34,648 nucleotides of DNA from an uncultured Gemmatimonadales bacterium (GCA_963771275.1 CAVYSW010000004.1:1-34648), one strand, 5' to 3'. Shown: positions 4,601 to 31,379, numbered from the stretch's first letter. The notes: generated from the letters alone by a model not told the origin. Made by a program: numbers and translations.

Positions 4601-5488
4601 TCATCCGGCGCCGAGGGACGCCACCAGTCTGGCCACGGTGTCGAAGGCACGGTCGAGGTCGAACTCCGCGAAGTCGCGCGCCCGCAGCACCGGCCGCAAC
4701 TCCGTCTCGAGCTGCGACCGCAATGCGGCGAGCCGAGTTGGAGAGACATCCACCGGCTCGCTCCCAGCCACGGCGAGCTTCCACCGAACCAGGGCAACCA
4801 ACTTGGCGTCATCCAGGCGGAGGCCCAGCCGGCGAACCGCGTGATCAATGTCGTAGAAGTCGCGGATCGCCCCTCCACGACGGGTCAGCGCGGCCCGCAG
4901 CTTCTCGGCCATGGCCTCCTCGCGCGACAGGCACGGGACGGACACCGGCGGCGCCAGCGGCGAGCCGGAAACCGGATCGAGAAGGAGTGTCCCCGCCTCG
5001 CCGAGCGCCACGGGATCGAGCAGTGGCTCGCGCAGGCTCACCTCCACCTGGATGGTTCCCTCCTCACCGCCCAACGGAGAGGTGTAGCCGAGCACGGCGA
5101 GGTACTGCGTCGAGGTGTTCGCCCCCGTGAGCGGCATCGTCACGCGGAAGCCTGGGAGCTGCCGGTCAATGCGCGCCAGGGAATTTCTCAGGGTCCGGGC
5201 GCGGCTCCGCCGCTCGCTCCGGGTCGCTTCCACCGGTGTCGGGATGGCGAAGTCGAGGTCCTCACTGAGCCGGTAGAACCCCGCGTGAACCTTGGCCAGG
5301 CAGGTACCGCCCTTGAAGACCAGCGGGCCTCCGGCCGGCGCGAGGCCTTGCAGGAGGACAGTGCAGAAGTAGTCCTTCACGATGAGCCGTGCAGGGAAGC
5401 CGGTCTCGGCAGCTGTGAAGTTCACGGCTTCCCCGAACAGCGCAGCATCGTCATGCAGCCGGAGCGGCGCGGCGTCAGGCGCGCTCAT
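4601..5488 (-). CDS. abiEii: AbiEii/AbiGii nucleotidyltransferase toxin, type IV TA
   Basis: KDYF, LVFKGGTCLAKV..FYRLSEDLDF, EAMAEKLRAALTR..AIRDFYDI motifs. Confidence 0.9.
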   Translation of the reverse strand: MSAPDAAPLRLHDDAALFGEAVNFTAAETGFPARLIVKDYFCTVLLQGLAPAGGPLVFKGGTCLAKVHAGFYRLSEDLDFAIPTPVEATRSERRSRARTLRNSLARIDRQLPGFRVTMPLTGANTSTQYLAVLGYTSPLGGEEGTIQVEVSLREPLLDPVALGEAGTLLLDPVSGSPLAPPVSVPCLSREEAMAEKLRAALTRRGGAIRDFYDIDHAVRRLGLRLDDAKLVALVRWKLAVAGSEPVDVSPTRLAALRSQLETELRPVLRARDFAEFDLDRAFDTVARLVASLGAG

Positions 5489-6275
5489 TCAGCACGACGC
5501 CCCATCGCCGATCGAGCGTTCCTCGTTTGGGCCGAGTGGGAATCCAGGGGATCAGGCTTGTGGTGGGCTCAAGCGCCCGCTCCAGCGTGCGCAGGTGTGC
5601 GGCGCCGACGCCTTCGCGCTCCAGCAGTGCGCCGATTCGGCGGATCGTGCCCGCATTCCCGTATCGCAAGGTCGCCCGAACCAACTCGTTGGCGCGGACC
5701 CGTCGTGCCGCCAGCTCGGTCCGAATCCATCCGAACGCTCGCGGCAGGCTGCCGAATCGAGACCAGTCATACACGGCGTCCACCAACGTGCGGGCGCGCG
5801 AAGAGTACGTTGCGGTCACGCCGTCCGCCGTCCGCACCTCCTCGGTATCGCCGAGCCGCCCGTCGGCCACTTTGATCAACGTCAGGGCCACGGCGCCGAC
5901 GGTTCGCGTGCCGGATATTCGGTTGTTATACGCATACACGCGGGCCGGCACTTGGGTGGTGAAGCCGTACCGGTTGAACGCGTTGGGACCGCAGATCTGC
6001 CAGCGCCCGCGGCGCTCCATCATCAGCGTGTCGAGGGCGAGGATCTCGTCAGGGCTCCACTTGCCGCCCAGAGGGAGCCGTGGCGGCACGAGGTACAGGC
6101 CCCGCCACACCCGGGCGATGAGGCCGGCTCTGGCGAGGCGGCTCAGGAGCTTCGCCTCCTGCGTGCGCGTGATCCGCAGGGCCCGCGTCAGGTCGCCGAC
6201 GCGGACGGCCCGCAGCTGCCGCATCTGGACGTAGGCCAGTAGTTGGGTTTCGAGCGGGCCCAAGGTCCGTTTCAT
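5475..6275 (-). CDS. abiEi: AbiEi antitoxin / transcriptional regulator, type IV TA
   Basis: N-terminal wHTH (LLSRLARAGLIARVWRGLYLV), AFNRYGFTTQVP, RTLVDAV; overlaps the abiEii start. Confidence 0.87.
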   Translation of the reverse strand: MKRTLGPLETQLLAYVQMRQLRAVRVGDLTRALRITRTQEAKLLSRLARAGLIARVWRGLYLVPPRLPLGGKWSPDEILALDTLMMERRGRWQICGPNAFNRYGFTTQVPARVYAYNNRISGTRTVGAVALTLIKVADGRLGDTEEVRTADGVTATYSSRARTLVDAVYDWSRFGSLPRAFGWIRTELAARRVRANELVRATLRYGNAGTIRRIGALLEREGVGAAHLRTLERALEPTTSLIPWIPTRPKRGTLDRRWGVVLNERA

Positions 6276-6450: not shown

Positions 6451-7819
6451 TTACTCGGGTGCCTTCTTCTTGATACTCGCCCACCACGCCAGCCGCTCCC
6501 CGATCGTCTTCTCGAACCCGCGGTCGGTGGGCTCATACCACTTGGCGCCCCGCAGCACCTCGGGCAGGTATTCCTGCCCCGCCGCCAGCGCCTCCGGCTC
6601 GGCGTGGTCGTAGCGGTAGCCCGCGCCGTAGCCCAGGTCCTTCATCAACGCCGTGGGCGCGTTCCGGATGTGGAGCGGCACGGGCTCGGCCGGGTGCTCC
6701 CGGGCGGCCTCCATCGCCTGGCCCCAGGCCAGGTAGATCCGGTTCGACTTGGGGGCCGTGGCCATGTAGACCACCGCCTCGGCAAGCGCCAGCTCCCCCT
6801 CCGGCGAGCCGAGGAAGTGGTACGTGTCCTTGGCGGCCAAGGCCAATGACAGCGCCCGCGGGTCCGCGAGCCCGATGTCCTCGGCCGCCATCCGCACCAC
6901 CCGCCGCGCCACGTACAGCGGGTCCTCCCCTCCCACAATCATCCGGGCGAGCCAGTACAGGGCCCCCTCCACATCGCTGCCCCGTACGGCCTTGTGGAGC
7001 GCGGAAATGACGTTGTAGTGCTCCTCCCCCGACTTGTCGTATTTCGGGAGCCGCTTGGCGAGGACGGCTTCGAGAACCTCGAGTGAAAGGGGAAAAGTGA
7101 ACAGTGAAAAGTCGGCTGCGGTGTAGGTCGCGATTCCCTCGATCGCATTCAGCACCCGGCGCGCGTCCCCATCTGCCACGCGCACGAGACGGTCCACCGC
7201 GTCACTCGGAGAGCCAAGCCTCGACGTTCGTTTCACTTTTCACTTTTCTCTTTTCACTCGCCGGCAGTCCCACCTCGGCAAACGCCCGCCGAACGATCAC
7301 CGCCAGATCCGCTTCCGTGAGGGGTTCCAGCACGTACACCTGGAGCCTGGAGAGCAGCGCCCCCGTGAGCTCGAAGCTCGGGTTCTCGGTCGTGGCGCCG
7401 ATCAGCGTGATGATGCCCTGCTCCACCCACGGCAGAAACGCGTCCTGCTGCGCCTTGTTGAACCGGTGGATCTCGTCGCAGAACATGATCGTCCCACGCC
7501 CCTCGAGCCGGAGCCGCTCCTGCGCCTGCTTGATGATCTCCCGCACCCGCGGCACGCCTTCCGTGACCGCGCTGAACGGCTCGAACACCTTGTCGGTGTG
7601 CTTGGCGATCAGGTAGGCGAGCGTGGTCTTGCCGCACCCCGGCGGGCCCCAGAAGATGATGCTCGGCACCTCGCCGCGCTCGATCGCCTGCCGGAGCGGC
7701 TTCCCCTCGCCCAGCAGGTGGCGCTGCCCCACGAACTCCGCCAGGGCTTGGGGCCGGAGCCGGGAGGCCAGGGGCTCGTGGGAGTCGGACTCGAACAGCG
7801 AGGGCTCGGAGTGGGTCAT
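6451..7819 (-). CDS. rarA: Replication-associated recombination protein A (MgsA/RarA AAA+ ATPase); one frameshift near 7205
   Basis: EPLASRLRP, Walker A GPPGCGKTT, DEIHRFNKAQQD, GATTENPSF, DGDARR, ISALHKAVRGSD, EDIGLADP, VPLHIRNAPT; joins ORFs 7202..7864 and 6451..7236. Confidence 0.95.
7082..7258. repeat. Intragenic inverted pair of GTGAAAA heptamer arrays inside rarA
   Basis: 7082-7111 GTGAAAA-like units and 7231-7258 TTTTCAC units; translated as FSLFTFPLSL and SEKRKVKSE. Confidence 0.9.
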
Positions 7820-7820
7820 G

Positions 7821-7897
7821 GGTGAACAGTAAGAAGTGAAAAGTGAAAAGTGAAAAGTGAACACGTATGGAGCGACTTTTCACTTTTCACTTTTCAC
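7821..7897. repeat. Inverted heptamer array pair at the lhgO|rarA junction
   Basis: AGTGAAA x4 plus 2 degenerate units (7821-7862), about 14 nt spacer, TTTTCAC x3 (7877-7897); supplies the lhgO C-terminus VKSEK and its TGA stop. Confidence 0.95.
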
Positions 7898-9088
7898 TCC
7901 GTCCACGACCAGGTCAGCGAAGCTCAGTGAGCACGTGAAGGCTGGCGACACCGCATTCAAGACGTGCGTGGAATTCGGGCCCGGCTCGATCACGAAGTCC
8001 ATCTCCAGCTCTCCCTTCTCCCGGTCGAACAGCTGCGCGCGGATGCCGTACTTGTCCGCCTTGACGAGGTCGTGGCTCGTGATCCGGGGCAGCATGCCGC
8101 GCGTGGCGCGCATGAACGCGGGCTTCAAGAGCCGCGGTGCCTCGGCGTGAAGGTAGTGACGAAAGCCGTTCGGATTCCGGACGTACTGCTGGAGGATCCG
8201 GCCGGTGATGGCGCCGAGGTCGCTCAGCGAAAGGTCCTCGAGCCCACGGTAGTTCTCCCGCCCGAACGCCGGCATGGCCGTGGGCCCAAAGTACACCGTG
8301 CCGGACACCGCCGTCGTGGCGTGCACGCCGAGGAATGGGAAGCGGAGGTCCGGCACGGGATAGATCAGCCCATTTACGGTGATCGGGCTCCCGGGCCGGA
8401 GCTTGTAGTAGAACCCGCGGAACGGGAGGATGCGGTAGCGCTCCCCGACCCCGAACGCGTGGGCGACCTTGTCGGCGTGCGCGCCGGCGGCGTTGATCAG
8501 GTGGCCGTAGCGGTAGGTGGTGCCGGCCGCCGTCACCGTGCGCGAGCGGGCGTCGGGCACGGCGACCTCGCCCAACCGCACCTGGACCCCGCCCGCCGTG
8601 ATCTCCTTGGCCACGTGCTCCACCACCGCCACCGGGTCCAGCACGGCCGTGGCGGGATTGTAGAGCCCGCGCCCGTCCGCCGAATGGGCGTCCGGTTCCA
8701 CGCGGCGGATCTCCGCCTCGTCGATCAGCCGGAAATCGGCGCCGTTGGCCCGCCCCCGCGCCTGCAGCGTCTCGAGCCGGCCGCTGTCTTTGCGATCGAG
8801 CGGGATGATCAGCTTCCCCACCCGCTTGATCGGCAGGCCGTGCTCGTCGCAGTACGCCGCCAGCCGCCTCCCGCCCTCGGCGCAGATCCGCCCCTTGAGC
8901 GACCCCGCGCCGTAGTAGATCCCCGAGTGGATCACCCCGGAGTTCCGGCCCGAGGCGTGCGCCGCGAGCCGCGGCTCCTTCTCGAATACGACGATCGAGG
9001 CGTCGGGGTACCGCAGCCGCAGGGCACGGGCGATGGTGAGCCCGACGATGCCGGCGCCGATTACGGCGAAATCAACGGAAGTGGGCAT
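7880..9088 (-). CDS. lhgO: L-2-hydroxyglutarate oxidase family FAD-dependent oxidoreductase
   Basis: VIGAGIVGL, EKE..LAAHASGRNSGVIHSGIYY, IYPVPDLRFPFLGVH, GIRAQ, HVLNAVSPAFT. Confidence 0.9.
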   Translation of the reverse strand: MPTSVDFAVIGAGIVGLTIARALRLRYPDASIVVFEKEPRLAAHASGRNSGVIHSGIYYGAGSLKGRICAEGGRRLAAYCDEHGLPIKRVGKLIIPLDRKDSGRLETLQARGRANGADFRLIDEAEIRRVEPDAHSADGRGLYNPATAVLDPVAVVEHVAKEITAGGVQVRLGEVAVPDARSRTVTAAGTTYRYGHLINAAGAHADKVAHAFGVGERYRILPFRGFYYKLRPGSPITVNGLIYPVPDLRFPFLGVHATTAVSGTVYFGPTAMPAFGRENYRGLEDLSLSDLGAITGRILQQYVRNPNGFRHYLHAEAPRLLKPAFMRATRGMLPRITSHDLVKADKYGIRAQLFDREKGELEMDFVIEPGPNSTHVLNAVSPAFTCSLSFADLVVDGVKSEK

Positions 9089-9591
9089 GAGTGAAAAGTG
9101 AAAAGTGAAGAGTGAAAAGGCGGGGATTCATCACGCTCCGCGATGGTTTGGTTAGTCCGTACCTTGTGGCCGCCCGCAATGTACTGCTCATGTACAAGCT
9201 ACGGTCACTGAAGGTGTGGGGTGCCGCCAGCCGGCTGGCGCGGGAGGCCTATCGGCTCACGCTCACTCGCCCCCTCGACCGGCATTTCTCGCTGGCCGAC
9301 CAGATTCGGCGGGCGGCCATCTCCATCCCGGCGAATCTCGCCGAGGGCTACGGGCTCGGCACGACGCCTCAGCTGCTCCGCTGTACCCGCATCGCACTCG
9401 GCTCGGCCTACGAGCTGCAGATCCACCTCGAGCTCGTGCGCGATCTTGAGCTCGTCGAGACCGGCAAGAGCGCGACGGTAGAGCAACTGGCGGACGAGAC
9501 GATTCGGATGCTGATCGGCATGCTGAAGGGTCTGGGACGCAAGTAGTCACCCCGCTCACCCTTTTCACTTTTCACTTTTCACTTTTCACCC
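9089..9591. mobile_element. Putative intervening element: four-helix-bundle gene bracketed by inverted heptamer arrays
   Basis: GTGAAAA x4 (9091-9118) and TTTTCAC x4 (9562-9589) fill the ZIP|lhgO junction; no transposase or target-site duplication seen, so mobility is inferred only. Confidence 0.5.
9190..9546 (+). CDS. Four helix bundle protein (23S rRNA intervening-sequence protein / Avd-like family)
   Basis: 118 aa: LKVW..A..LA...Y.LT...P....FSLADQIRRAAISIPANLAEGYG...IALGSAYEL...L.L..DL; antisense to the surrounding genes. Confidence 0.93.
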   Translation: MYKLRSLKVWGAASRLAREAYRLTLTRPLDRHFSLADQIRRAAISIPANLAEGYGLGTTPQLLRCTRIALGSAYELQIHLELVRDLELVETGKSATVEQLADETIRMLIGMLKGLGRK

Positions 9592-10308
9592 AATTCCCAC
9601 CGCCTCCACGATCTGCTTCGTCAAGAAGAACGCTCCCGCGCCCAGGAAGAACGCCACCGGCAGTCGCCACCCCCGCTTGCCCTGGAACTCCGGCACCAGG
9701 TTCGACGCCGCGACGTAGATCGTGACGCCCGCCGAGAGGGCAAGGCCGTGCTCGGTGAGCACGCCGACGGTATCGGTGAGCAGCACGCCGAGCACGGTGG
9801 CAAGGCCGAGCAGCGCGGCGCTGCCCACGGCACGGGTCGTCGACGTGCCGCCCGCCACCTGGATGCTCGAGATCGTGACGCCTTCGGGCAGCTTGTGCAG
9901 GAAGATCGCGAGGAACAGCAGCACGCCGAGCTGGTTGCTCACCGCGAACCCGCTGGCGATCGCGACCCCGTCGAAGAACGTGTGGAGCAGGAGCCCGATC
10001 AAGGCCGAGATGCCGGCCGCGTGCGACACCGAATGGGTCTCGACGCCGAAGTGGAAGTGCGGCGTGAGCGTGTGCTGGGTGAGGTGAACGAGCAGATAGC
10101 CGAGCAGGATGAACCCCGCGGCATTTGCCCCGCCAATGGACAGCGCGTGCGGCACCATCTCGGTGAGGCTCACCGCCAGCATGTAGCCCGCCCCGAACGC
10201 CACGAACCCCTCGATCACGGCGAGCCCGAACCGGGCGCTCCGCGCCACGGCGAGCCCGCCCGCGACGTTGGCGGCGGCGGCGATCAGCGCATAGAAGACG
10301 GGCGTCAT
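9586..10308 (-). CDS. ZIP family metal transporter
   Basis: Hydrophobic 240 aa from MTPVFYAL; GLLLHTFFDGVAI, AIFLHKLPEG, His-rich loop, IYVAASNLVPE; ATGA overlap with cca. Confidence 0.92.
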   Translation of the reverse strand: MTPVFYALIAAAANVAGGLAVARSARFGLAVIEGFVAFGAGYMLAVSLTEMVPHALSIGGANAAGFILLGYLLVHLTQHTLTPHFHFGVETHSVSHAAGISALIGLLLHTFFDGVAIASGFAVSNQLGVLLFLAIFLHKLPEGVTISSIQVAGGTSTTRAVGSAALLGLATVLGVLLTDTVGVLTEHGLALSAGVTIYVAASNLVPEFQGKRGWRLPVAFFLGAGAFFLTKQIVEAVGIG

Positions 10309-11604
10309 GGGGCGCTGGGCGGGGTCGCGGGCCCCGGCGGCTCCGACGCGCCCGACGGCCGCGAGGTGCGGCGCGACCGGCGCGCGGCGGGCAGCGGCAG
10401 CTCGGCCGTGATCCGCGTGGCGGCGCGGAGCAGCGCCTCCCGCGTGTTCAGCTCGGGGTGCACCAGCACGAGGTCGAGCAGAGCCTCCAGCACGATCCCG
10501 ATCTCCGGCCCCTCGGTCATCCCGATCGCAAGGACGTCGGTGCCGGTGACCGCGAGATCGCCGATGCTGAGCGGCGCGTGCGAGGCGCGGACCCGGGCGA
10601 CGACGTCCGCCAGCTCGGTCCCCCACCCTTCGGCCTGCGCGATCGCCACCAGGTCGTCCGCCGCCGGCCCGACGTCCACCAGCCACTCGCGCACCGCGAG
10701 ATCGGTCATCACCGTGGGCCAGGCATCACGGCACTCGCCGATCCGCCTGCCCGCGCTCGATCTCGGCGTTGGAGCAGCGGAGACGCGCGAGGGTGGTTGC
10801 GGGATCGGACGACAAGAACGACGTGACGAGAACGGGATCCCGCGGCATGAACCTATCCACCACTGCGAAGTCCCCTTTCACTTTTCTCTTTTCACTTTTC
10901 ACTATCTCCGGGAGCCACGACTCCAGGGCTCCAATCTCAGCCCACAATCGCACCAGCTCCGCCGGGCTCCTTGCGCCCGTCAGTCCCTTGAACCACTCGT
11001 CCCGCACCCGCTCGGCCGACAGGTGCTCGAGGCCGGCGACCTCCGCGCGCGCCGCCTCCCACGTGGCCGGCTCGATCACGAAGTGGAACCGCGCCGCGAA
11101 CCGGAGCGCGCGCACGATCCGCAGATAGTCCTCGCGGAACCGCTGGCGCGGCTCGCCCACCGCCCGGATCACCTTGGCCGCGAGGTCGCGCTCGCCGCCG
11201 AACGGGTCGCGCCACTCGTGGCGTATCGGGTGGTAGGCGATCGCGTTGATCGTGAAGTCGCGCCGGGCCAGGTCGTCCTCGAGCGCCACGCCAAATTGGA
11301 CCTCGGCGTGGCGCCCGTCGGTCCGCACGTCCTTGCGGAACGTGGTCACTTCGTGCGCCGCGCCGGTCTCGTCCATCACCGCCACCGTGCCGTGCTCCAC
11401 GCCGATCGGGATCGTCCGCCGGAACAGCCGCCGCACCACGTCTGGGGTGGCCGCCGTCGCGAGGTCGAAGTCCTTGTTCGGGATGCCGAGCAGGTTGTCC
11501 CGTACCGCGCCCCCGACGCACCACGTCGCGTGGCCGGCTTCCTCGAGTCGACGGGCGATGGCGACGACGGGGGCGGGAATCGGGAGCGAAGGCGGGAAGG
11601 TCAT
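10305..11604 (-). CDS. cca: CCA tRNA nucleotidyltransferase; one frameshift near 10750
   Basis: VGGAVRD, KDFDLAT, EVTTFR, DLARRDFTINA, EDYLRIVRALRF, LSAERVRDEW; C-terminal DLAVTGTDV...GPEIG in ORF 10305..10712. Confidence 0.92.
10875..10903. repeat. Intragenic heptamer array in cca
   Basis: mRNA GTGAAAA GTGAAAA GAGAAAA GTGAAAG, translated VKSEKRKVKG. Confidence 0.9.
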
Positions 11605-11607
11605 GGA

Positions 11608-11753
11608 AGTGAAAAGTGAAAAGTGAAAAGGAGTGAAAAGTGATAAGTGAAAAGTGAAAAGGGAGAACGGGGCCGGCGTTGACGCAGGCCGCGGAGCATG
11701 GAGCACGAATCAGCAGTAATCAGTCTTTTCACTTTTCACTTTTCACTTTTCAC
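11608..11753. repeat. Inverted heptamer array pair at the SDR|cca junction
   Basis: AGTGAAA x3 + x4 (11608-11659) and TTTTCAC x4 (11726-11753); the SDR TGA lies in the outermost unit; the cca ATG follows 3 nt after the array. Confidence 0.95.
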
Positions 11754-12520
11754 CCACATAGCACCGCCCCCCCATTCACGTTCACGATCTCCCCCGTGAT
11801 ATGCCGCCCCAGCTTCGAGCAGAGAAACACGATCGGCCCGGCGATGTCGTCCGCGGTCGCGACGCGGCGGAGCGGGATCCCGGCCTCGATCCGGCGCCGG
11901 CCCTCACCCCCGTCGGCTTGGTAGGGGAGCGCCGCCATCTCGGTGTCCACCCAGCCGGGAGCCACGGAATTGACCGTTACCTCGGGCGCCGCCTCGATGG
12001 CGAGCGATTTCACCAGGGCGATCAGCGCCCCTTTGCTGGCGGCGTAGTCGGCGTGGAACCCCTCGCCGCGCTGGCCCGCCGTGCTGGTCACGATCACGAC
12101 CGACCCGCCGGGCCGGATCACCCGCAGCACCGCGCGGCAGCCGTAGAACACCGAGTCCAGGTTCACCTGCATCGTCTCGCGCCACTGCGCGTCGCTCATC
12201 CGGGCGACTGGAACCTCCTCGGGCACCCAGATCCCGGCATTCGCCACGAAGCAGTCGAGCCCGCCGAAGTCGCGCACGACGTCCGCGACGACCCGTTCGT
12301 TGGATTCGCGCGAAGCCAGGTCGAGCTGGTAGGCCCGGAATCGGCCTCCCCCCGACCCCCTCAGCTCCCCAAGCACCCGCTCCGCATCCGCCTTCCGCGA
12401 CCGGTACGTGAACGCCACATCAGCCCCGGCCTTGGCGAATAGCATGGCCGTCGCGGCGCCGATGCCGCGGGAGCCCCCGGTGATGAGGGCGACTTTCCCG
12501 GAGAGGTCGATCAACGGCAC
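11750..12520 (-). CDS. SDR family NAD(P)-dependent oxidoreductase (FabG-like)
   Basis: TGGSRGIG, VANAGI, YAASK, VNSVAPGWVDT, ITGEIVNVNGG; GAGGAG SD before GTG 12520. Confidence 0.93.
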   Translation of the reverse strand: MPLIDLSGKVALITGGSRGIGAATAMLFAKAGADVAFTYRSRKADAERVLGELRGSGGGRFRAYQLDLASRESNERVVADVVRDFGGLDCFVANAGIWVPEEVPVARMSDAQWRETMQVNLDSVFYGCRAVLRVIRPGGSVVIVTSTAGQRGEGFHADYAASKGALIALVKSLAIEAAPEVTVNSVAPGWVDTEMAALPYQADGGEGRRRIEAGIPLRRVATADDIAGPIVFLCSKLGRHITGEIVNVNGGAVLCG

Positions 12521-12560
12521 GGGTGGTTGCTCTCCTCGCGCAGGGGCAGCTCCGTGAGTG

Positions 12561-12677
12561 AGTGAAAAGTGAAAAGTGAAAAGTGAAAAGAAGCCACTTG
12601 GCAAGCTACAGGGCCACCGGGCTGGCAACGAGAATCGTGCGGAGCGGACTTTTCACTTTTCACTTTTCACTTTTCAC
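12561..12677. repeat. Inverted heptamer array pair at the PHP phosphatase|SDR junction
   Basis: AGTGAAA x4 (12561-12588) and TTTTCAC x4 (12650-12677) abutting the TAG stop. Confidence 0.95.
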
Positions 12678-13459
12678 TAGCTCCACTTCTCGCCCTTCGC
12701 ATGCAGCCACCCACGAACACGCTCGGCGAAGCCGCCTTGGATTCGAGCTTTCGGCACGGGAACCAGCTTCCCGTCGCCAATCACCGCCCGCGGGTTCTCC
12801 ACGGTGAGCCACATGGCGGCGTCGGCGGCACCGTGCCGCTCGAGGAATCGCCGGCCGGTGGCGAGGCTGCGCCGGTCGCCGTGGTTGTCGGCGGCGAGCA
12901 CGTCCGCCAGGCCCGCCCGCAGCAGGCGGCGGGCAAGCTCCCCCCGGCTCGTGGGGCGCGTAATCTCGGTGGCGTCCACCTGGATCGCGGCGCCGACCGT
13001 GCGCCACAGATCCACCGAACGGGCCGAGCACAGGCGGTACCGCTCCGGGTGTGCGACGATCGGGACCAGCCCCTTGGAGCTGATCGCCTGGAGCACGTCG
13101 GCCACCAGGTGCCCCATCACGGACAACGGAAACTCCACAAGGTAGTAGCGCGAGCCGGCCAGCGCGTACCGCCGGTCTCCCAGCGCCTCAGCCGGGAGCG
13201 GCCGGTCCAGCATGATCTCGAAGCCTGGGTGCAACCGGATCCCCGGCGGGGCGGCCGCCTTGAGCTCCGCCAGCCGCTCGTCCCGCACGCGGATGGCGTC
13301 CTCCCCCTTGGTGGCGATCTCGCCCGCCCTGAGGTGCGGCGTCATGACGATGTCGGTGATGCCCGCCTCGGCGAGGGTCGTGAGCACCCCCACCGATTGG
13401 GCGAGGGAGCGCGAGCCGTCGTCCACCCCCGGGAGGAGGTGGGAGTGGAGGTCAATCAC
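12677..13459 (-). CDS. CpsB/CapC/YwqE family PHP protein-tyrosine phosphatase
   Basis: MIDLHSHLLPGVDDGS, VMTPH, YYLVEFP, PIVAHPERY, AADNH. Confidence 0.92.
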   Translation of the reverse strand: MIDLHSHLLPGVDDGSRSLAQSVGVLTTLAEAGITDIVMTPHLRAGEIATKGEDAIRVRDERLAELKAAAPPGIRLHPGFEIMLDRPLPAEALGDRRYALAGSRYYLVEFPLSVMGHLVADVLQAISSKGLVPIVAHPERYRLCSARSVDLWRTVGAAIQVDATEITRPTSRGELARRLLRAGLADVLAADNHGDRRSLATGRRFLERHGAADAAMWLTVENPRAVIGDGKLVPVPKARIQGGFAERVRGWLHAKGEKWS

Positions 13460-13464
13460 GGCGC

Positions 13465-13511
13465 CCCCTCTCCCACTCTGCCCCTCTCCCCCTCACCCCC
13501 TCACCCCTCAC
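13465..13511. repeat. 8-nt-period G-rich tandem repeat (mRNA GTGAGGGG/GAGAGGGG) filling the hyp|PHP junction
   Basis: CCCCTCTC CCACTCTG CCCCTCTC CCCCTCAC CCCCTCAC CCCTCAC on +; upstream TGA stop lies in the first mRNA unit. Confidence 0.8.
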
Positions 13512-13834
13512 CGGATCTCCCCCAGCCGTTGGGGCTCCGTCTCCCCCACCCATTCGCAGGCCAGCGTGATCAGGGCATCGGCGGCGAGCAGGGTGAGGGC
13601 GGTGTCGTGCGTCGGGGGGCCGGCCTTGGCGGCGGCGAGGAGATCTTCCGCGACCGCCCGGAGCTCCTCCTCGAACGGCCGCTGACGCACGCTGCACGCT
13701 GTACGGCTGTTACGCTGCACGGCGTCAGCCTCACGCTGCACGCTACACGCTGCACGCGCGGTTATGATTCGGGCCCGCAACGCCGGCGGGGCTTCCGCCA
13801 GGCGCTCATCGAGCCAGCCCTCGGGGTCCGTCAC
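13508..13834 (-). CDS. Hypothetical protein downstream of alaS, with an internal heptamer-repeat insertion
   Basis: GTGA overlap with the alaS stop; WLDERLAEAPPALRARI...ALTLLAADALITLACE helical protein. Confidence 0.75.
   Translation of the reverse strand: MTDPEGWLDERLAEAPPALRARIITARAACSVQREADAVQRNSRTACSVRQRPFEEELRAVAEDLLAAAKAGPPTHDTALTLLAADALITLACEWVGETEPQRLGEIR
13685..13757. repeat. Intragenic CACGCTG heptamer repeats
   Basis: Two blocks of CACGCTG/CACGCTA-like units; translated RAACSVQRE...TACSVRQ. Confidence 0.8.
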
Positions 13835-16557
13835 GCGCCGGCGCCGAGCGCCGCACGGACGATGTCCGGTATGCGGCGCCGGGTTTCGTCCAGCTTGGTC
13901 GGATCGCCGATCCCGCCCGAGGCGAAGTGCGGGCGCCCCCCGCCGCTCCCCCCGCTGATCGCGGCGATCGCCTTCACCAGGTCTCCGGCGCGAATGCCGC
14001 GCGAGACGAGGTCGTCCGTCACCGCCACGTGGATCCCCGGCCGCTCGCCGCCGGTGAGCAGCACCTTGATCGCCCGCTTCTGCTGCTCGCGGAACGTGTC
14101 CATCAGCATCCCGATCTGCGCCCGGTCCGACACGGGGGATTCGTCCAGCACGAGGGAAACGTCGCCCACGGCCACGGTGCTGCCGTCTGCCCCCTGCCCC
14201 CCTCCCCCTCTACGCAGCAGCTCTTCAATCTGCTTGTCCAGCCGCCGTCGCTCCTCGATCAACGACTCGATCTTCTTCACCAGATGCTCGGGGTTGGCGC
14301 GCAGCAGGTCCGACGCGGCGGCGATCCGCTCGTCGAGCTGCTTCACGAGATCGTAGGCCCCGGGGCCCGTCACCGCCTCGATGCGGCGCACGCCCGCCGC
14401 GACACCCGACTCGTGCGTGAAATGGAACAGCCCGATCTGGCCGGTGCTCCGCACGTGGGTGCCGCCGCACAGCTCGACCGAGAGCCCCGGCATGTCGACC
14501 ACGCGCACCACGTCGCCGTACTTCTCGCCGAACAGCGCCATGGCGCCCTTGGCAAGCGCCTCGCGGTACGGCAGCTCGTAGGTCGCGAGCTCCACGTTGA
14601 GCCAGATGCCGTGGTTCACCTCGGCCTCGATGCGCTTGAGCTCCGCCTCGCCGATTGGGCCGTGATGCGAGAAGTCGAACCGCAGGCGGTCGGGCGCCAC
14701 CACCGAGCCCGCCTGCCGCACGTGGTCGCCCAGCACGTCGCGCAGCGCCGCATGGACCAGGTGGGTGGCGCTGTGGTTCCGCTCGATGTCGCGGCGCCGC
14801 TGCTCGGCCACCGCCGCCTCGACCGGCGTGGGCTCGAAGTCGCCTGCGTAGGGCCCACCCACGATCTGGCGCCCTTCCGCCTTGTGGACGTCGTCGACCT
14901 GGAGCTCCCACCCCTCGCCGCGCACCACCCCGGTGTCGCTCACCTGCCCGCCCGACTCGGCGTAGAACGGATTCTCGTGCAGCACCATCTCCAGCCGGTC
15001 GTCCGCCCGGCGGAACGCCAGGATGTCGGTCTCGGCCGTGGTGGTGTCGTAGCCCACGAACTTCTGGCGCTTGCGCGGGGTCACCCGCACCCATTCTTGC
15101 CCGGTCGCACGCCGAACCCGGTCAACTATCTCCGCCTTCTCTGAGAACCTCGCGGCATCCGCACCCCGAACGTTCCGCGACCGCCGCTGCTGCTCCTCCA
15201 GCGCCAGCTCGAAGCCCGCGACGTCCACCTTCCGCCCGCGCTCGGCGGCGATCAGCTCGGTCAAGTCGAGCGGGAACCCGTACGTGTCGTACAGCTTGAA
15301 CGCGTCGGCGCCGCTCACCGCGCCGCTCGATTCCGTCAGGATCTCTTCCAGGCGCGTGAGCCCGCCCTCGATCGTCTCGAGGAAGCGCTCTTCTTCGATC
15401 CGCGTCACCTTCTCGATCTGCTCGCGCCTGGTCTTGAGCTCGGGGTAGACGTCCTCGAGCCCGTCCACCACCGCCATGGCGAGCGGCGTCAGCGTCGGCT
15501 CGGAGCGCCCCATGAGATACGCGTGGCGCACCGCGCGCCGGAGAATCCGCCGCAGCACGTAGCCGCGGCCGTCGTTGGACGGGTACACACCGTCGGCCAA
15601 CAGGAACGCCACGGCGCGCGCGTGGTCGGCGAGCACGCGGAAGCCGGCACCGAGCGGGCCGGGATCGTAGCGGCGGCCCATCACCTCTTCCGCCCGCCGG
15701 ATGATCGGCATGAACAGGTCGGTGTGGAAGTTCGAGTCCACGCCCTGCATCACTGACGCGATCCGCTCGAGGCCGGCCCCGGTGTCCACCGACGGCGCCG
15801 GGAGCGGCGTCCGCGAGCCATCCTTCGCCTGGTCGAACTGCATGAAGACCAGGTTCCAGATCTCCAGGAGCTGCCCTGATTCCGCCAGCTGGACGAACTG
15901 GGGGAGGGTGGGCGGATGAACGATGGCCGATGGCCGACCGCCGACAGCCGATTGCCGATGGCCGATGGCCGAATCAGGGGGGGGGCTGGGTCGGCTATCG
16001 GCCATCGGCCATCGGCCAACGTCGACATAGATCTCCGAGCACGGCCCACACGGCCCGGTGTCCCCCATCTGCCAGAAGTTGTCCTTGTCGCCCAGGCCGT
16101 AGATCCGGGATTCGGCGATGCCCGTCACCGCGCGCCACAGCTTCCGCGCCTCGTCGTCGGAGTGGTGCACGGTGACGTAGATGCGGTCGGGATGGATGCC
16201 GAGGTACTGCTCCGACGTCACCCACTCCCAGCCGAACGCGATCGCGTCCTTCTTGAAGTAGTCGCCGAACGAGAAGTTGCCCAGCATCTCGAAGAACGTG
16301 TGGTGCCGGGCGGTGTGCCCCACCTGTTCCAGGTCGTTGTGCTTGCCGCCGGCGCGGACGCACTTCTGGACGGTGACGGCGCGGGTGTAGTCGCGGTGCT
16401 CGAGACCCTGGAACACGCGCTTGAACTGCACCATGCCGGCATTGGTGAACAGCAGCGTCGGGTCCCCGTGGGGCACGAGCGACGCCGAGGCCACGGGCCG
16501 GTGGCGGCGCGCGGCGAAGAAGTCGACGAACGACTGGCGGATGGCGGAAGCGTGCAT
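13831..16557 (-). CDS. alaS: Alanine--tRNA ligase
   Basis: DPTLLFTNAGMVQFK, RHHTFFEMLGNFSFGDYFK, GPCGPCSEI, EIWNLVFMQ, NHSATH, ELCGGTHV, GVRRIEAVTG, GGGRP. Confidence 0.99.
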   Translation of the reverse strand: MHASAIRQSFVDFFAARRHRPVASASLVPHGDPTLLFTNAGMVQFKRVFQGLEHRDYTRAVTVQKCVRAGGKHNDLEQVGHTARHHTFFEMLGNFSFGDYFKKDAIAFGWEWVTSEQYLGIHPDRIYVTVHHSDDEARKLWRAVTGIAESRIYGLGDKDNFWQMGDTGPCGPCSEIYVDVGRWPMADSRPSPPPDSAIGHRQSAVGGRPSAIVHPPTLPQFVQLAESGQLLEIWNLVFMQFDQAKDGSRTPLPAPSVDTGAGLERIASVMQGVDSNFHTDLFMPIIRRAEEVMGRRYDPGPLGAGFRVLADHARAVAFLLADGVYPSNDGRGYVLRRILRRAVRHAYLMGRSEPTLTPLAMAVVDGLEDVYPELKTRREQIEKVTRIEEERFLETIEGGLTRLEEILTESSGAVSGADAFKLYDTYGFPLDLTELIAAERGRKVDVAGFELALEEQQRRSRNVRGADAARFSEKAEIVDRVRRATGQEWVRVTPRKRQKFVGYDTTTAETDILAFRRADDRLEMVLHENPFYAESGGQVSDTGVVRGEGWELQVDDVHKAEGRQIVGGPYAGDFEPTPVEAAVAEQRRRDIERNHSATHLVHAALRDVLGDHVRQAGSVVAPDRLRFDFSHHGPIGEAELKRIEAEVNHGIWLNVELATYELPYREALAKGAMALFGEKYGDVVRVVDMPGLSVELCGGTHVRSTGQIGLFHFTHESGVAAGVRRIEAVTGPGAYDLVKQLDERIAAASDLLRANPEHLVKKIESLIEERRRLDKQIEELLRRGGGGQGADGSTVAVGDVSLVLDESPVSDRAQIGMLMDTFREQQKRAIKVLLTGGERPGIHVAVTDDLVSRGIRAGDLVKAIAAISGGSGGGRPHFASGGIGDPTKLDETRRRIPDIVRAALGAGA
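15919..16020. repeat. In-frame palindromic GCCGATG heptamer insertion in alaS
   Basis: About 8 GCCGA(TG) units (15919-15974), G9-containing loop, 4 (CA)TCGGC units (15991-16016); translated GRWPMADSRPSPPPDSAIGHRQSAVGGRPSAIV. Confidence 0.92.
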
Positions 16558-16587
16558 AGAGGAGGAACTTAACTAGCACCGGGAGAA

Positions 16588-16672
16588 AGTGAAAAGTGAA
16601 AAGTGAAAGGTGAAAAGGGAACCCGAGACCGGGGGGGGGACCACTTTTCACGTTTCACTTTTCACTTTTCAC
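16588..16672. repeat. Inverted heptamer array pair at the wecB|alaS junction
   Basis: AGTGAAA-type x4 (16588-16615), spacer with G9, TTTTCAC-type x4 (16645-16672). Confidence 0.95.
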
Positions 16673-16681
16673 TCAGCCCCA

Positions 16682-17778
16682 CTACCGATACTCTGCCCCG
16701 TCGAGAATCACTCCCACAATCCGCTCCGCCGTCTTCCCGTCCCACCGCTCGATCTGCGCTTTGCGGTAACTGGAACTGGCGAGGGCCTCGCGCGCCGCGG
16801 TCTGGAGTGCCTCCTGGGTCGGGGCAACCAAGCGATTCGTCCCGTGGGTGCATGTAACCGGGCGCTCGGTGTTGGGTCGGACGGTCAGGCACGGGACGCC
16901 GAGGAACGAGGTCTCCTCCTGCAGACCGCCCGAGTCCGTGATCACCAACGCCGCCTGCTCCACGAGGCCCAGCATGTCGAGGTAGCCGATCGGGTCCATG
17001 AGCCGGAGGTGGCCACTGGAGGGAGCTTCGAAGCCCAGCCTGTCGATTCGGTCGCGTGTGCGGGGATGCACGGGGAACAGCACCGTCAGGTCGCGGCCGA
17101 GGACCTCCAAGGCACCCAGGAGCCCCCGCAGGGCCACCGGCTCATCCACGTTGGCCGGACGGTGCAAGGTCACCACGGCATACCGCTGACCGCTAACCGC
17201 TAACCGCATCGGCGTGTTTCGCTCCCGCGCAGCGGGCAGGGCGTGGACGAGCGAGTCGATCATGATGTTGCCGACAAAGTGGATGCGGTCCGCGGGAACC
17301 CCTTCGGCCTTGAGGTTCGCGTCGGCATCCCGCGAGGGCGTGAACAGGAGATCCGCCAGGCGGTCCGTGACCACGCGGTTGATCTCCTCCGGCATGGTCC
17401 AATCGCGGCTGCGGAGACCAGCCTCGACGTGCCCCACACGGATGCCGAGCTTGGCGGCGACGAGGGCCGCAGCGACGGTCGAGTTGACGTCGCCGTAGAC
17501 CAGGATCACGTCGGGCTTCTGCTCGAGCAGCACGGGCTCGAGGCGCTGCATGATCAGCGCGGTCTGCTGCGCGTGCGAGCCAGAGCCCACGTCCAGATTG
17601 CAGTCAGGTGCCGGGATCCCCAGCTCGTCGAAGAACGACCCTGACATCTCGGGGTCGTAGTGCTGGCCGGTGTGGAGGATGACGTGCCGCGCATCAGAGC
17701 GCCCCGCGAGCGGCGGGCCAGCGGGGCGAGCTTCATGAAGTTGGGGCGGGCGCCGACGACCGAGAGGAGGGTCGTCAT
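16682..17778 (-). CDS. wecB: UDP-N-acetylglucosamine 2-epimerase (non-hydrolysing); frameshift near 17712
   Basis: VVGARPNFMKLAP, HTGQHYD, VYGDVNST, HVEAGLRS, MPEEINR, VTLHRPANVD, TDSGGLQEE, TERP. Confidence 0.95.
17182..17207. repeat. Short intragenic GCGGTTA heptamer repeat in wecB
   Basis: mRNA GCGGTTA GCGGTTA GCGGTCA GCGGT, translated RLAVSGQR. Confidence 0.7.
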
Positions 17779-29894: not shown

Positions 29895-30161
29895 CACCGC
29901 AGAGAACGCAGAGCCCGACTTGACAGCTGTGCACCGCAGAGTACGCAGAGAACGCAGAGGCCTCATCTGCTGCGGGAAGATCTACTGTCTCTGCGTCCAT
30001 GATCTGTCCGCAGAGCACGCAGAGCCGGTGACAGCTGCACCGCAGAGTGCGCAGAGACCGCAGGGTCTCATGCTACTGCAGGAGCACCTACTGTCTCTGC
30101 GTTCTCTGCGATCTCTGCGGTTTCTCAGCTTTCTCTGCGGTTTCTCAGCTTTCTCTGCGGT
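29895..30161. repeat. 9-nt-period CGCAGAG complex inverted/direct repeat between convergent epsI and GT2
   Basis: Terminal IR ACCGCAGAGAA/TTCTCTGCGGT; about 95 nt imperfect direct repeat (29898-29996 vs 30009-30102); exact 20 nt duplication 30121-30160. Confidence 0.9.
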
Positions 30162-31379
30162 TCAGCCGCCACACACTCTCACTTGCGCCCCGGCCCTTGC
30201 GGGACCAGCGCTCCCCGAGACGGCGCGCCGAGTGGGCTCCCAGGTCGGGGTCATGTCCCCGCGCAGGGCGTTGATCCACGCGTGGATGCCAGCGATCAGA
30301 CCCCAGATCACATAGGCGGGGATCGCGACGATATGCGGCAGCCGTTGATCAGGTCTGAACCACCCGATGGCGGCGCACAAGCTGGCGAAAACGAACGCCG
30401 CCGTAATTGGGAGCCGTAGCGAAGGAACCTCGCCAGCGGCGAGCAGCGCGCCCGCCATCCCCAGTACCACGGCCCAAGGCACCAGCCAGCGCGCCAGCTT
30501 GTGGCTGATCACCATCCAGGAGAAGCGCCCGTGACGCAGCGGGTTCATCAGGTGGCGCTTGTAGAACAGCGTCTGGAGGCCTCGGCTCATCGTACGCACC
30601 TTGCGCCGGTACTCGCGCCGGAGCGATAGCGCGCGCGGCACGAAGCAGACCGCGTCGCGCACCGACACCGAGCGGTACCCGTGCTCGTGGGCGATCAGTG
30701 GTGCGGCGAAGTCGCGGCTCAGCGCTTCGGGCACGATCTCTTTGTGCAACTCGATCCGGCTCGCGTAGAAGCAGCCGGATGCCCCCACGATGCCCCCAGC
30801 GGCCGTCTCGAGATCGCGCACCCACATCTCGTAGCCCACATACCCGGACTCCCCGACGTTCGCATCGTCCTCCACCCGCGCGACACTGACGTCCCGCCCG
30901 GATGCGACGCCGACCGACGGGTCGCGGAACGCTGCGATGAGCGGCTTCAGGGCCCCGGGGCGGAGCCTGACGGACGCGTCCGTGTTGACGACGACTCCCC
31001 CCCGGAGGTGCGCTCGGGCCGCGTTTTCAGCGGCGGTCTTCCCCCCGCGCTCCGGCAGGCGGATCAGCTCGACTCCGCGGGCTTCGTAGGATCGCACGAT
31101 CTCGTCGGTCCGGTCGGTGGAGGCGTCGGACACCACGAGCATCTGCAACCGGTCGCGTGGGTAATCGAGCTCGAGCAAGCGGTCCAGGGTCGCGGCGATC
31201 GCCGCCTCCTCGTTGTACGCCGGGACCGTGATGCTCACCGCCGGCCAGTCGGGGGTGGCGCGAGCGCCCACGCCGTCGCGCCTGCCACGGGCGATCAGCC
31301 AGAGGAGGACGGGGTAGCCGGCATACGCGTACAACGGCACCGCCGCCGCCGCGGCAAGGACGATCCAGAGGATCACCAT
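30162..31379 (-). CDS. Glycosyltransferase family 2
   Basis: N-terminal TM, VSITVPAYNEE, VVSDASTDRT, GKTAA, VNTDA, RRKVR, C-terminal TMs. Confidence 0.92.
   Translation of the reverse strand: MVILWIVLAAAAAVPLYAYAGYPVLLWLIARGRRDGVGARATPDWPAVSITVPAYNEEAAIAATLDRLLELDYPRDRLQMLVVSDASTDRTDEIVRSYEARGVELIRLPERGGKTAAENAARAHLRGGVVVNTDASVRLRPGALKPLIAAFRDPSVGVASGRDVSVARVEDDANVGESGYVGYEMWVRDLETAAGGIVGASGCFYASRIELHKEIVPEALSRDFAAPLIAHEHGYRSVSVRDAVCFVPRALSLRREYRRKVRTMSRGLQTLFYKRHLMNPLRHGRFSWMVISHKLARWLVPWAVVLGMAGALLAAGEVPSLRLPITAAFVFASLCAAIGWFRPDQRLPHIVAIPAYVIWGLIAGIHAWINALRGDMTPTWEPTRRAVSGSAGPARAGAQVRVCGG

Follow-up and report, generated by a model that had tools for sequence, protein, structure and literature searches.

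Inverted heptamer arrays around and beyond a PF05635 four-helix-bundle gene in an operon of an uncultured Gemmatimonadales bacterium

Introduction

Why should one seven-letter word be written, in inverted tandem arrays, at junction after junction of a single bacterial operon, and what has a small four-helix-bundle (4HB) gene lying among these arrays to do with them? The question is raised by a stretch of 34,648 nt of DNA from an uncultured soil Gemmatimonadales bacterium, referred to here as the window, which is the whole of contig C4 in an assembly of 3.86 Mb (G000, the studied genome; 70% G+C, 11 contigs, 96.7% complete). In this operon, arrays of GTGAAAA and its reverse complement lie between stop and start codons and inside genes, and one inverted pair encloses a gene of the Pfam family PF05635. 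For decades, tandem heptamer repeats have been recorded in bacteria with no mechanism to account for them; for the very widespread family PF05635, a structure has been solved, but no function is assigned. A sequence-only reading of the window had interpreted the arrays as intervening sequences of the mRNA. Here we find a one-to-one correspondence between four heptamer families and four PF05635 cassettes in one good assembly, which links these two unexplained features of genomes. The arrays are probably DNA-level hairpin elements, similar in kind to the open reading frame (ORF)-bearing intervening sequence (IVS) of 23S rRNA and placed between and inside ordinary genes; an interpretation as spliced mRNA introns is not supported.

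A PF05635 cassette and array pairs of the same word in one operon

The 4HB gene (9190-9546, + strand, 118 amino acids) is antisense to the operon and begins after a 71-nt leader that follows its upstream arm. It belongs to PF05635, 23S_rRNA_IVP (E 7.2e-27; 94 bits, cut-off 33.8), the only family above the Pfam cut-off on this ORF, a weak DUF6297 match of 19.7 bits falling under the respective 29.8. The protein matches PDB entry 2GSC (the PF05635 protein XCC0516 of Xanthomonas) with E 1.3e-11, and the structure entries of this relative contain five chains each. The gene is bracketed by two arms of 28 nt, (GTGAAAA)4 at 9091-9118 and (TTTTCAC)4 at 9562-9589, and occupies the longest spacer of the window pairs, as had been recognized from the sequence alone. 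The cassette is located between a ZIP transporter gene and a FAD oxidoreductase gene, not in helix 25 or 45 of 23S rRNA.

A two-unit probe (GTGAAAAGTGAAAA, at most one mismatch) gave 37 matches in the window, all within 7097-16672, compared with 0.01 expected from shuffled sequences. By Tandem Repeats Finder (TRF) and a unit-wise scan, 13 arms were resolved between 7083 and 16672: twelve make up six inverted (GTGAAAA)n...(TTTTCAC)n pairs, and the remaining one is a solo array. The pair inside rarA and the one between the PHP phosphatase and short-chain dehydrogenase (SDR) genes are each bridged by independent contigs from other samples, which shows that assembly did not create the arrays. On the operon strand, the order in each pair is (GUGAAAA)n, spacer, (UUUUCAC)n; on the + strand, the arm at the lower coordinates is the G-arm and the other the T-arm. 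The arms are the following, described in the sense of the operon:

16645-16672, minus strand: wecB/alaS purine arm, GTGAAAA x4, beginning 10 nt past the wecB TAG.
16589-16616, minus strand: wecB/alaS pyrimidine arm, TTTTCAC x4, ending 31 nt ahead of the alaS ATG; RNA fold of the element -55.4 kcal/mol, z -8.3.
12650-12677, minus strand: PHP/SDR purine arm, its first G being the last base of the PHP TAG (1-nt overlap).
12562-12589, minus strand: PHP/SDR pyrimidine arm, ending 41 nt ahead of the SDR GTG; fold -64.1 kcal/mol.
11726-11753, minus strand: SDR/cca purine arm, with the SDR TGA (11752-11750) inside the first unit.
11609-11660, minus strand: SDR/cca pyrimidine arm, 7 units (4+3), ending 4 nt ahead of the cca ATG.
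10875-10902, minus strand: solo purine array of cca, in frame (IVKSEKRKVKG) in a variable loop.
9562-9589, minus strand: ZIP-side cassette arm, containing the ZIP TGA (9588-9586); on the + strand, (TTTTCAC)4 downstream of the 4HB gene.
9091-9118, minus strand: lhgO-side cassette arm, ending 2 nt ahead of the lhgO ATG; on the + strand, (GTGAAAA)4 upstream of the 4HB gene.
7877-7897, minus strand: lhgO/rarA purine arm, 3 units; lhgO passes through two of them and meets its TGA (7882-7880) in the third.
7822-7863, minus strand: lhgO/rarA pyrimidine arm, 4 units (7836-7863) and 2 degenerate ones, ending 2 nt ahead of the rarA ATG; fold -38.6 kcal/mol.
7230-7257, minus strand: rarA internal purine array, in frame (SEKRKVKSET), its second unit being GAGAAAA.
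7083-7110, minus strand: rarA internal pyrimidine array, in frame in the rarA linker (FSLFTFPLS).

The sequence-only reading had ascribed one architecture to five gene junctions. The junction pairs stand, and the inventory is six pairs and a solo array, one pair lying within rarA and the solo array within cca. That the repeat itself supplies the stop codons of SDR, ZIP and lhgO was correct. The pyrimidine arm ends 2 nt before the start codon at lhgO and, with its degenerate units counted, at rarA, 4 nt before it at cca, 31 nt at alaS and 41 nt at SDR. Confinement to 7-16.7 kb is a property of the window only, given that the GTGAAAA family has 47 array segments in the genome, 14 here and 33 elsewhere. 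Finally, the rule of the purine arm coming first carries no strand information in itself, because the reverse complement of a pair has the same arrangement; it is a rule of the cassette, on the sense strand of the 4HB gene. Joints in contigs, such as one from 9118 to 9553, were considered as empty alleles and left unused: their sides measure 21-39 letters with other letters in between, and they most likely stem from other array copies.

Four words and four cassettes in the genome

Arrays with a 7-nt period are over-represented in the studied genome, with a count of 145 (TRF score of at least 45) where period 6 yields 6 and period 8 yields 19, which is the pattern that defines long simple-sequence repeats and the short tandemly repeated repetitive (STRR) sequences. 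Five PF05635 genes are present, four of which are tightly bracketed by inverted arrays, and the heptamer is different for each: GTGAAAA in the window, TAGCCGA at C3:424 kb, GTGTAGC at C3:142 kb and TCAATGT at C9:232 kb. Among 217 period-7 arrays, 84 carry an exact cassette word and 170 are within one mismatch of the four, the expectation for random GC-matched heptamers being 4.2%. Neighboring arrays at most 600 nt apart form 46 inverted pairs, 3 direct pairs and 27 of mixed words, and in each of the 38 short inverted pairs that belong to the four families, the arm found upstream of the 4HB gene comes first, as in the respective cassette.

The arrays also cluster around the gene whose word they carry. 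Within 15 kb of each cassette, 11, 7, 3 and 2 cognate arrays were counted against 0.27, 0.22, 0.31 and 0.39 expected, the P values being overstated because clustered counts are non-independent, with an effect that is still 5- to 40-fold; the enrichment of non-cognate arrays was much weaker. A genome scan for co-location with PF05635 genes, which had been proposed along with the first interpretation, thus found it at four of the five genes. Two further suggestions made there gain support, namely that the short pairs are empty versions of the cassette, with which they share word and polarity, and that they are clustered around the gene.

PF05635 genes occur in 26 of the 31 genomes of the order that were searched (the studied one counted), and an automatic test detected inverted same-word arrays, with periods of 5-12, at 18 of 29 4HB loci taken from relatives in the order, several others having compound arrays. 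In other phyla, 35 of 74 4HB loci with complete flanks have inverted same-word arrays and 67 have at least one array, whereas control positions shifted by 800 nt gave 0/145 and 39/145, respectively. On the sense strand of the 4HB gene, a purine-rich upstream arm was seen at 36 of 38 loci in other phyla and at 18 of 22 within the order. Relative to both neighbors, the gene was called antisense at 16 loci, sense at 5 and mixed at 13; this strand call is crude, and it is wrong at least for the window itself.

These figures bear on the possibility that the arrays are simple-sequence repeats generated by slippage and unrelated to the 4HB gene, which would land or be kept in repeat-rich spots. Slippage would fit the copy number that differs between strains, the presence of arrays in a genome with no 4HB match (G014), and the many bacteria in which heptamer repeats have been described with no linked protein, at least in the accessible parts of those accounts (PMC4679880, PMC4692102). 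It leaves unexplained the predominance of inverted over direct pairs, the polarity common to 38 out of 38, the agreement between four words and four cassettes, and the contrast between real loci and shifted controls, and we give it very little chance of being correct.

Filled and empty sites among relatives

Alignment of orthologous junctions, a check likewise suggested at the outset, uncovered filled and empty alleles at both SDR/cca and PHP/SDR. At SDR/cca, stop and start codons overlap or abut in five relatives (for example GGATGACG in G016), and a hairpin element is found in three genomes, made of GTGAAAA in the studied genome, GTGAAAC in the congener G003 and GATTGCG in G009. At PHP/SDR, G003 has TGA-ACGC-GTG, a gap of 4 nt, where the studied genome has about 155 nt. 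Insertion at the DNA level into such tightly coupled junctions makes the arrays look clamped between stop and start.

In G003, with a DNA identity of 72-80% in this region, arrays are also present at SDR/cca, ZIP/4HB/lhgO, inside rarA and at lhgO/rarA. Across the orthologous arrays, GTGAAAA accounts for 42 of 54 units in the studied genome (GTGAAAC for 2 of 54) versus 0 of 62 in G003, where 41 of 62 are GTGAAAC or GGGAAAC; GTGAAAC is the predominant word in five congeners. Between these sister species, the word has changed in step throughout the genome. The site of the solo array of cca is occupied in G003 by (GCGCACA)4, and the 4HB proteins of both genomes at the operon site are reciprocal best matches with 52% identity. 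From these alignments, the arrays would appear to be either rewritten in place or lost and re-made at hot spots. Insertion hot spots exist, because the SDR/cca junction was filled independently in G009 and because different words are found at the same cca and alaS sites (the latter described below). Either route implies that the process continues to act and depends on the current word of the genome. In a member of another genus (G016:C20, locus L024), the same operon has an antisense 4HB cassette after ZIP, with arms GGGATTC/AATCCCG, and its rarA gene carries an in-frame AATCCCG array in the same linker as the second rarA array of the window.

The arrays could instead form a cis-regulatory network, as RNA or DNA binding sites for a 4HB repressor, antiterminator or translation regulator that acts in the way TRAP reads triplet repeats, kept at junctions by selection and not spread by copying. 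Each gene having a word of its own, with the arrays clustered around it, would be expected of a regulator and its sites; the usual arm of about 4-5 units is compatible with the five chains per entry in the structures of XCC0516, and the polarity is fixed, with a purine-rich upstream arm. However, the sites are gained and lost between close relatives and strains, they lie in protein loops of unrelated essential genes, their flanking genes have no common function, and a wholesale change of word between sister species is unexpected for a regulon. We regard such a network as rather unlikely, with a small but appreciable chance of being right.

Array content was also compared between genomes with and without the gene, in samples of about 100 kb each (84 kb for G014). 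Over 584 kb from the six genomes lacking a PF05635 match, 3 arrays were found and none of them formed an inverted pair; the seven genomes with a match had 26 arrays in 700 kb, including 3 inverted pairs; 16 of these arrays came from one genome and none from three. The dependence goes in the expected direction and is too noisy to count.

Reading frames, RNA stems and RNase III

The in-gene arrays of rarA and cca occupy loops that are variable among relatives. In rarA, the GAGAAAA form of the second purine unit removes what would otherwise be an in-frame TGA, and the spacer of the pair is 119 nt of native rarA coding sequence with the conserved ADGDARRVLNAIE segment (ADGDARR). The rarA gene of G003 is a single open frame through both arrays. 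The candidate explanation that rarA is split by a 28-nt array was rejected, as alignment with G003 and the sister strains places the array in frame and assigns the break to a separate extra base at 7204-7206.

When the junction elements are folded as RNA, their energies range from -38.6 to -64.1 kcal/mol and their z-scores from -7 to -10; at SDR/cca, the last three units of the pyrimidine arm are unpaired in the fold. Stable and perfect stems located exactly between stop and start are what speaks for mRNA-level intervening sequences, that is, RNA introns or processing sites in which the stem loops out the spacer to be cut out or bypassed, and rRNA IVSs of the same build are excised by RNase III, according to the accessible part of PMC4990558. 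This part of the sequence-only reading is not supported. The arrays of rarA and cca are read in frame, the spacer in rarA is conserved protein-coding sequence and could not be excised, filled and empty alleles differ at the level of DNA, and the Rfam search of the elements returned only generic microRNA-precursor hairpins below threshold (21-38 bits, gathering scores 67-90), with no ribozyme or intron family. With the result for RNase III that follows, looping-out or excision from the mRNA seems improbable to us.

Canonical RNase III was not found in the studied genome, either with the profiles PF14622, PF00636 and TIGR02191 or by tblastn with RNase III from the same phylum. Among 46 genomes of the class, several of which consist of a single contig, PF14622 was detected in none, versus 14 of 15 in the phylum's other classes; with the unpublished genome G074 left out, the count for the class is 0 of 45. 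IVS-style cutting of the stems is accordingly doubtful in the studied genome, and cutting by RNase III as in rRNA IVSs is unlikely in this lineage. PF05635 was present in 37 of 45 sampled genomes of the class that lacks RNase III versus 6 of 15 from other classes, and three complete genomes (families f6 and f7) and one draft (f4) have neither. A link between the loss of RNase III and the cassettes was considered and set aside, the relation not being clean and the comparison being confounded by phylogeny.

The hairpins, which would have a U-rich 3' arm whichever strand is transcribed, might also serve as terminators or attenuators of transcription in both directions. The 3' arm of the GTGAAAA family does contain UUUU runs on both strands, convergent gene ends make up 10 of 28 classified pairs against a background of 14%, and gene ends adjoin arrays more than starts do (47 vs 25), both counts being based on crude gene calls. 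The six pairs of the window are all within a string of co-directional genes or inside genes, however; the other three families have no U runs, and a simple terminator scan of 6900-17000 flagged none of the arrays. This is the least probable of the explanations weighed here.

Operon genes and other repeats

The genes of the operon are all encoded on the minus strand:

16682-17647, minus strand: wecB-like UDP-GlcNAc 2-epimerase gene.
13831-16557, minus strand: alaS, ATG at 16557.
12677-13459, minus strand: CpsB/PHP phosphatase gene.
11750-12520, minus strand: SDR gene, GTG start at 12520.
11604 (ATG) to about 10410, minus strand: cca, a gene of the CCA-adding/poly(A) polymerase family.
Ending at 9586, minus strand: ZIP transporter gene.
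7880-9088, minus strand: lhgO-like FAD oxidoreductase gene, ATG at 9088.
About 7818 to 6451, minus strand: rarA/mgsA.

Two reading frames are broken in the window assembly by single extra bases, rarA at 7204-7206 and cca at 10748-10749. Two sister-strain contigs have one base fewer at both places, which makes the breaks either errors of the assembly or private mutations. A promoter scan of 6900-17000 returned no sigma-70-like candidate. Downstream of rarA, an ORF at 5475-6275 gives weak AbiEi antitoxin and DUF6088 matches, both under the Pfam cut-offs.

The operon also contains arrays of two further families:

15921-16018 (98 nt): in-frame inverted pair (GGCCGAT)7/(ATCGGCC)4 in alaS, a second family whose word is at most one mismatch from the cassette arms at C3:424 kb.
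13687-13757: GCACGCT x9.9, a third-family array in the gap between alaS and PHP.

The corresponding site in alaS of congener G004 is occupied by 48 nt that include an array of period 8 (GGCAGCGG). In two sister-strain assemblies, 13680-13731 of the GCACGCT array (52 nt) is replaced by 10 other letters. The same gap contains a C-rich octamer array (CCCCCTCT) at 13464-13512. A separate system is found at 29897-30162, where CGCAGAG-type arrays of 9-10-mers in a 106-nt direct repeat are followed by inverted TCTCTGCG-type arrays.

For annotation, these arrays matter in that they provide stop codons, interrupt assemblies made from short reads and lie in frame within the essential genes alaS, rarA and cca.

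Discussion

In the explanation that we favor, DNA-level hairpin elements of four families would each comprise one gene-bearing copy, built of a PF05635 gene as the sole coding part, a short leader and inverted arrays of its own word, and many empty pairs consisting of arms only. The gene-bearing copy of the GTGAAAA family would be the one at ZIP/lhgO, with most nearby copies within this operon. The 4HB protein is predicted to bind its own repeats and, together with host replication or repair enzymes, may be needed to copy or maintain the arms. Copying would be limited to these arms, the loops being unrelated. In the transcript, the arms would pair as very stable stems that place the upstream stop beside the downstream start; a terminating ribosome could then open the stem and be handed over to the next gene, keeping the ancestral translational coupling. 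This hand-over can reasonably be supposed, because the ancestral junction had overlapping stop and start codons, and in the filled one the stop is in or at the 5' arm and the start just past the 3' arm.

Several observations weigh against this explanation. The loops of empty pairs have nothing in common with one another or with the cassette interior beyond matches of 7-9 nt, and the three filled alleles of SDR/cca show no consistent or clear target-site duplication, so that a simple unit transposition does not fit. In rarA, native coding sequence lies between the two arms, which must have been placed separately. The 4HB protein has, to our knowledge, neither a known nor a predicted catalytic activity. 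The fifth PF05635 gene of the studied genome (C7) has no arrays, the 4HB-rich genomes G025, G027 and G042 had none in the 100 kb sampled, and arrays are present in G014, where no PF05635 gene was found at 97% completeness. In addition, 27 adjacent pairs combine different heptamer families (e.g., at C3:355974, C10:35395 and C10:71070), and CGTGCAG followed by CGGCCAA is found three times in the studied genome, which suggests that arms can be exchanged, or come to adjoin, across families.

A bolder proposal is that PF05635 proteins are sequence-specific readers of their own arrays that drive a transposase-free copying of short arms into nearby DNA, with hairpins written and rewritten where stop and start codons meet and within loops of proteins, and with all copies kept on the current word. 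We put it forward tentatively, as a possibility that falls well short of probable. If true, arm copying of this kind would explain heptamer repeats such as STRR sequences, long simple-sequence repeats and the GGGAATC arrays of Xanthomonas, as well as the function of a very large orphan family. Both puzzles, that of the heptamer repeats and that of PF05635, become testable at the bench.

The closest known elements are the S23p-type IVSs of 23S rRNA, found in Coxiella burnetii and also in Leptospira, whose layout supports the assignment of the arrays to the 4HB gene made from the sequence alone. As described in the accessible part of PMC4990558, the C. burnetii IVS has 428 nt, a 28-bp terminal stem, tandem GACAGAT heptamers in variable number and an S23p ORF, and it is cut by RNase III at the first repeat. 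A PF05635 ORF within an inverted-repeat stem of about 28 bp, terminal tandem heptamers whose copy number varies between strains, and an element of about 430-500 nt are thus shared with the window cassette (PMC4990558). In contrast to those IVSs, the cassette is located in and between protein genes, outside helices 25 and 45; dozens of empty pairs with its word occur alongside it, and its 4HB gene is antisense to the host transcript in a lineage where RNase III was not found.

In the organization of the families, the parallel is with repetitive extragenic palindromic (REP) sequences and the hairpins formed by REP doublets (REPINs), in which a single-copy gene for a REP-associated tyrosine transposase (RAYT) is flanked by inverted repeats that are dispersed as doublets, and several families, each with its own gene, can share a genome. 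RAYT is a tyrosine transposase of the IS200/IS605 type, and REP repeats are single palindromes. Here, too, dispersed inverted doublets match the repeats flanking a single-copy gene (170 of 217 arrays; 38 of 38 in polarity), but the gene encodes a small helical bundle and not an IS200/IS605-like transposase, the repeats are tandem heptamer arrays, and the doublet loops are unrelated. Miniature inverted-repeat transposable elements were considered and rejected, the hairpins having no conserved internal sequence, no consistent target-site duplication in the three filled alleles of SDR/cca and no transposase. Avd, from diversity-generating retroelements, is of the same superfamily as PF05635 and acts as the nucleic-acid-binding partner of an enzyme; unlike in that system, no reverse transcriptase, template repeat or variable repeat adjoins the window cassette.

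Tandem heptamers are also abundant between the genes of cyanobacteria, as STRR or long simple-sequence repeats. Together with the TAACTGA repeats of Beggiatoaceae, which are described with no linked protein in the accessible part of that account (PMC4679880), they share with the arrays studied here an intergenic location, often ending beside start codons, and words specific to a lineage. In the descriptions of these repeats, direct arrays prevail and no cognate gene is named, whereas the studied genome has inverted pairs of fixed polarity tied to PF05635. The GGGAATC heptamers of Xanthomonas are likewise inverted, forming 70-75 convergent pairs per genome, mostly intergenic, for which G-quadruplexes are discussed and, in the accessible text, no linked protein is named (PMC4692102). 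PF05635 genes have been noted inside cas loci (PMC3936711, accessible in part). In the literature searched, with subscription journals outside its coverage, no title or abstract treats repeat-flanked PF05635 cassettes as a class. This family of hairpin elements is built like an rRNA IVS and organized like a REPIN/RAYT system, with no recognizable enzyme of its own.

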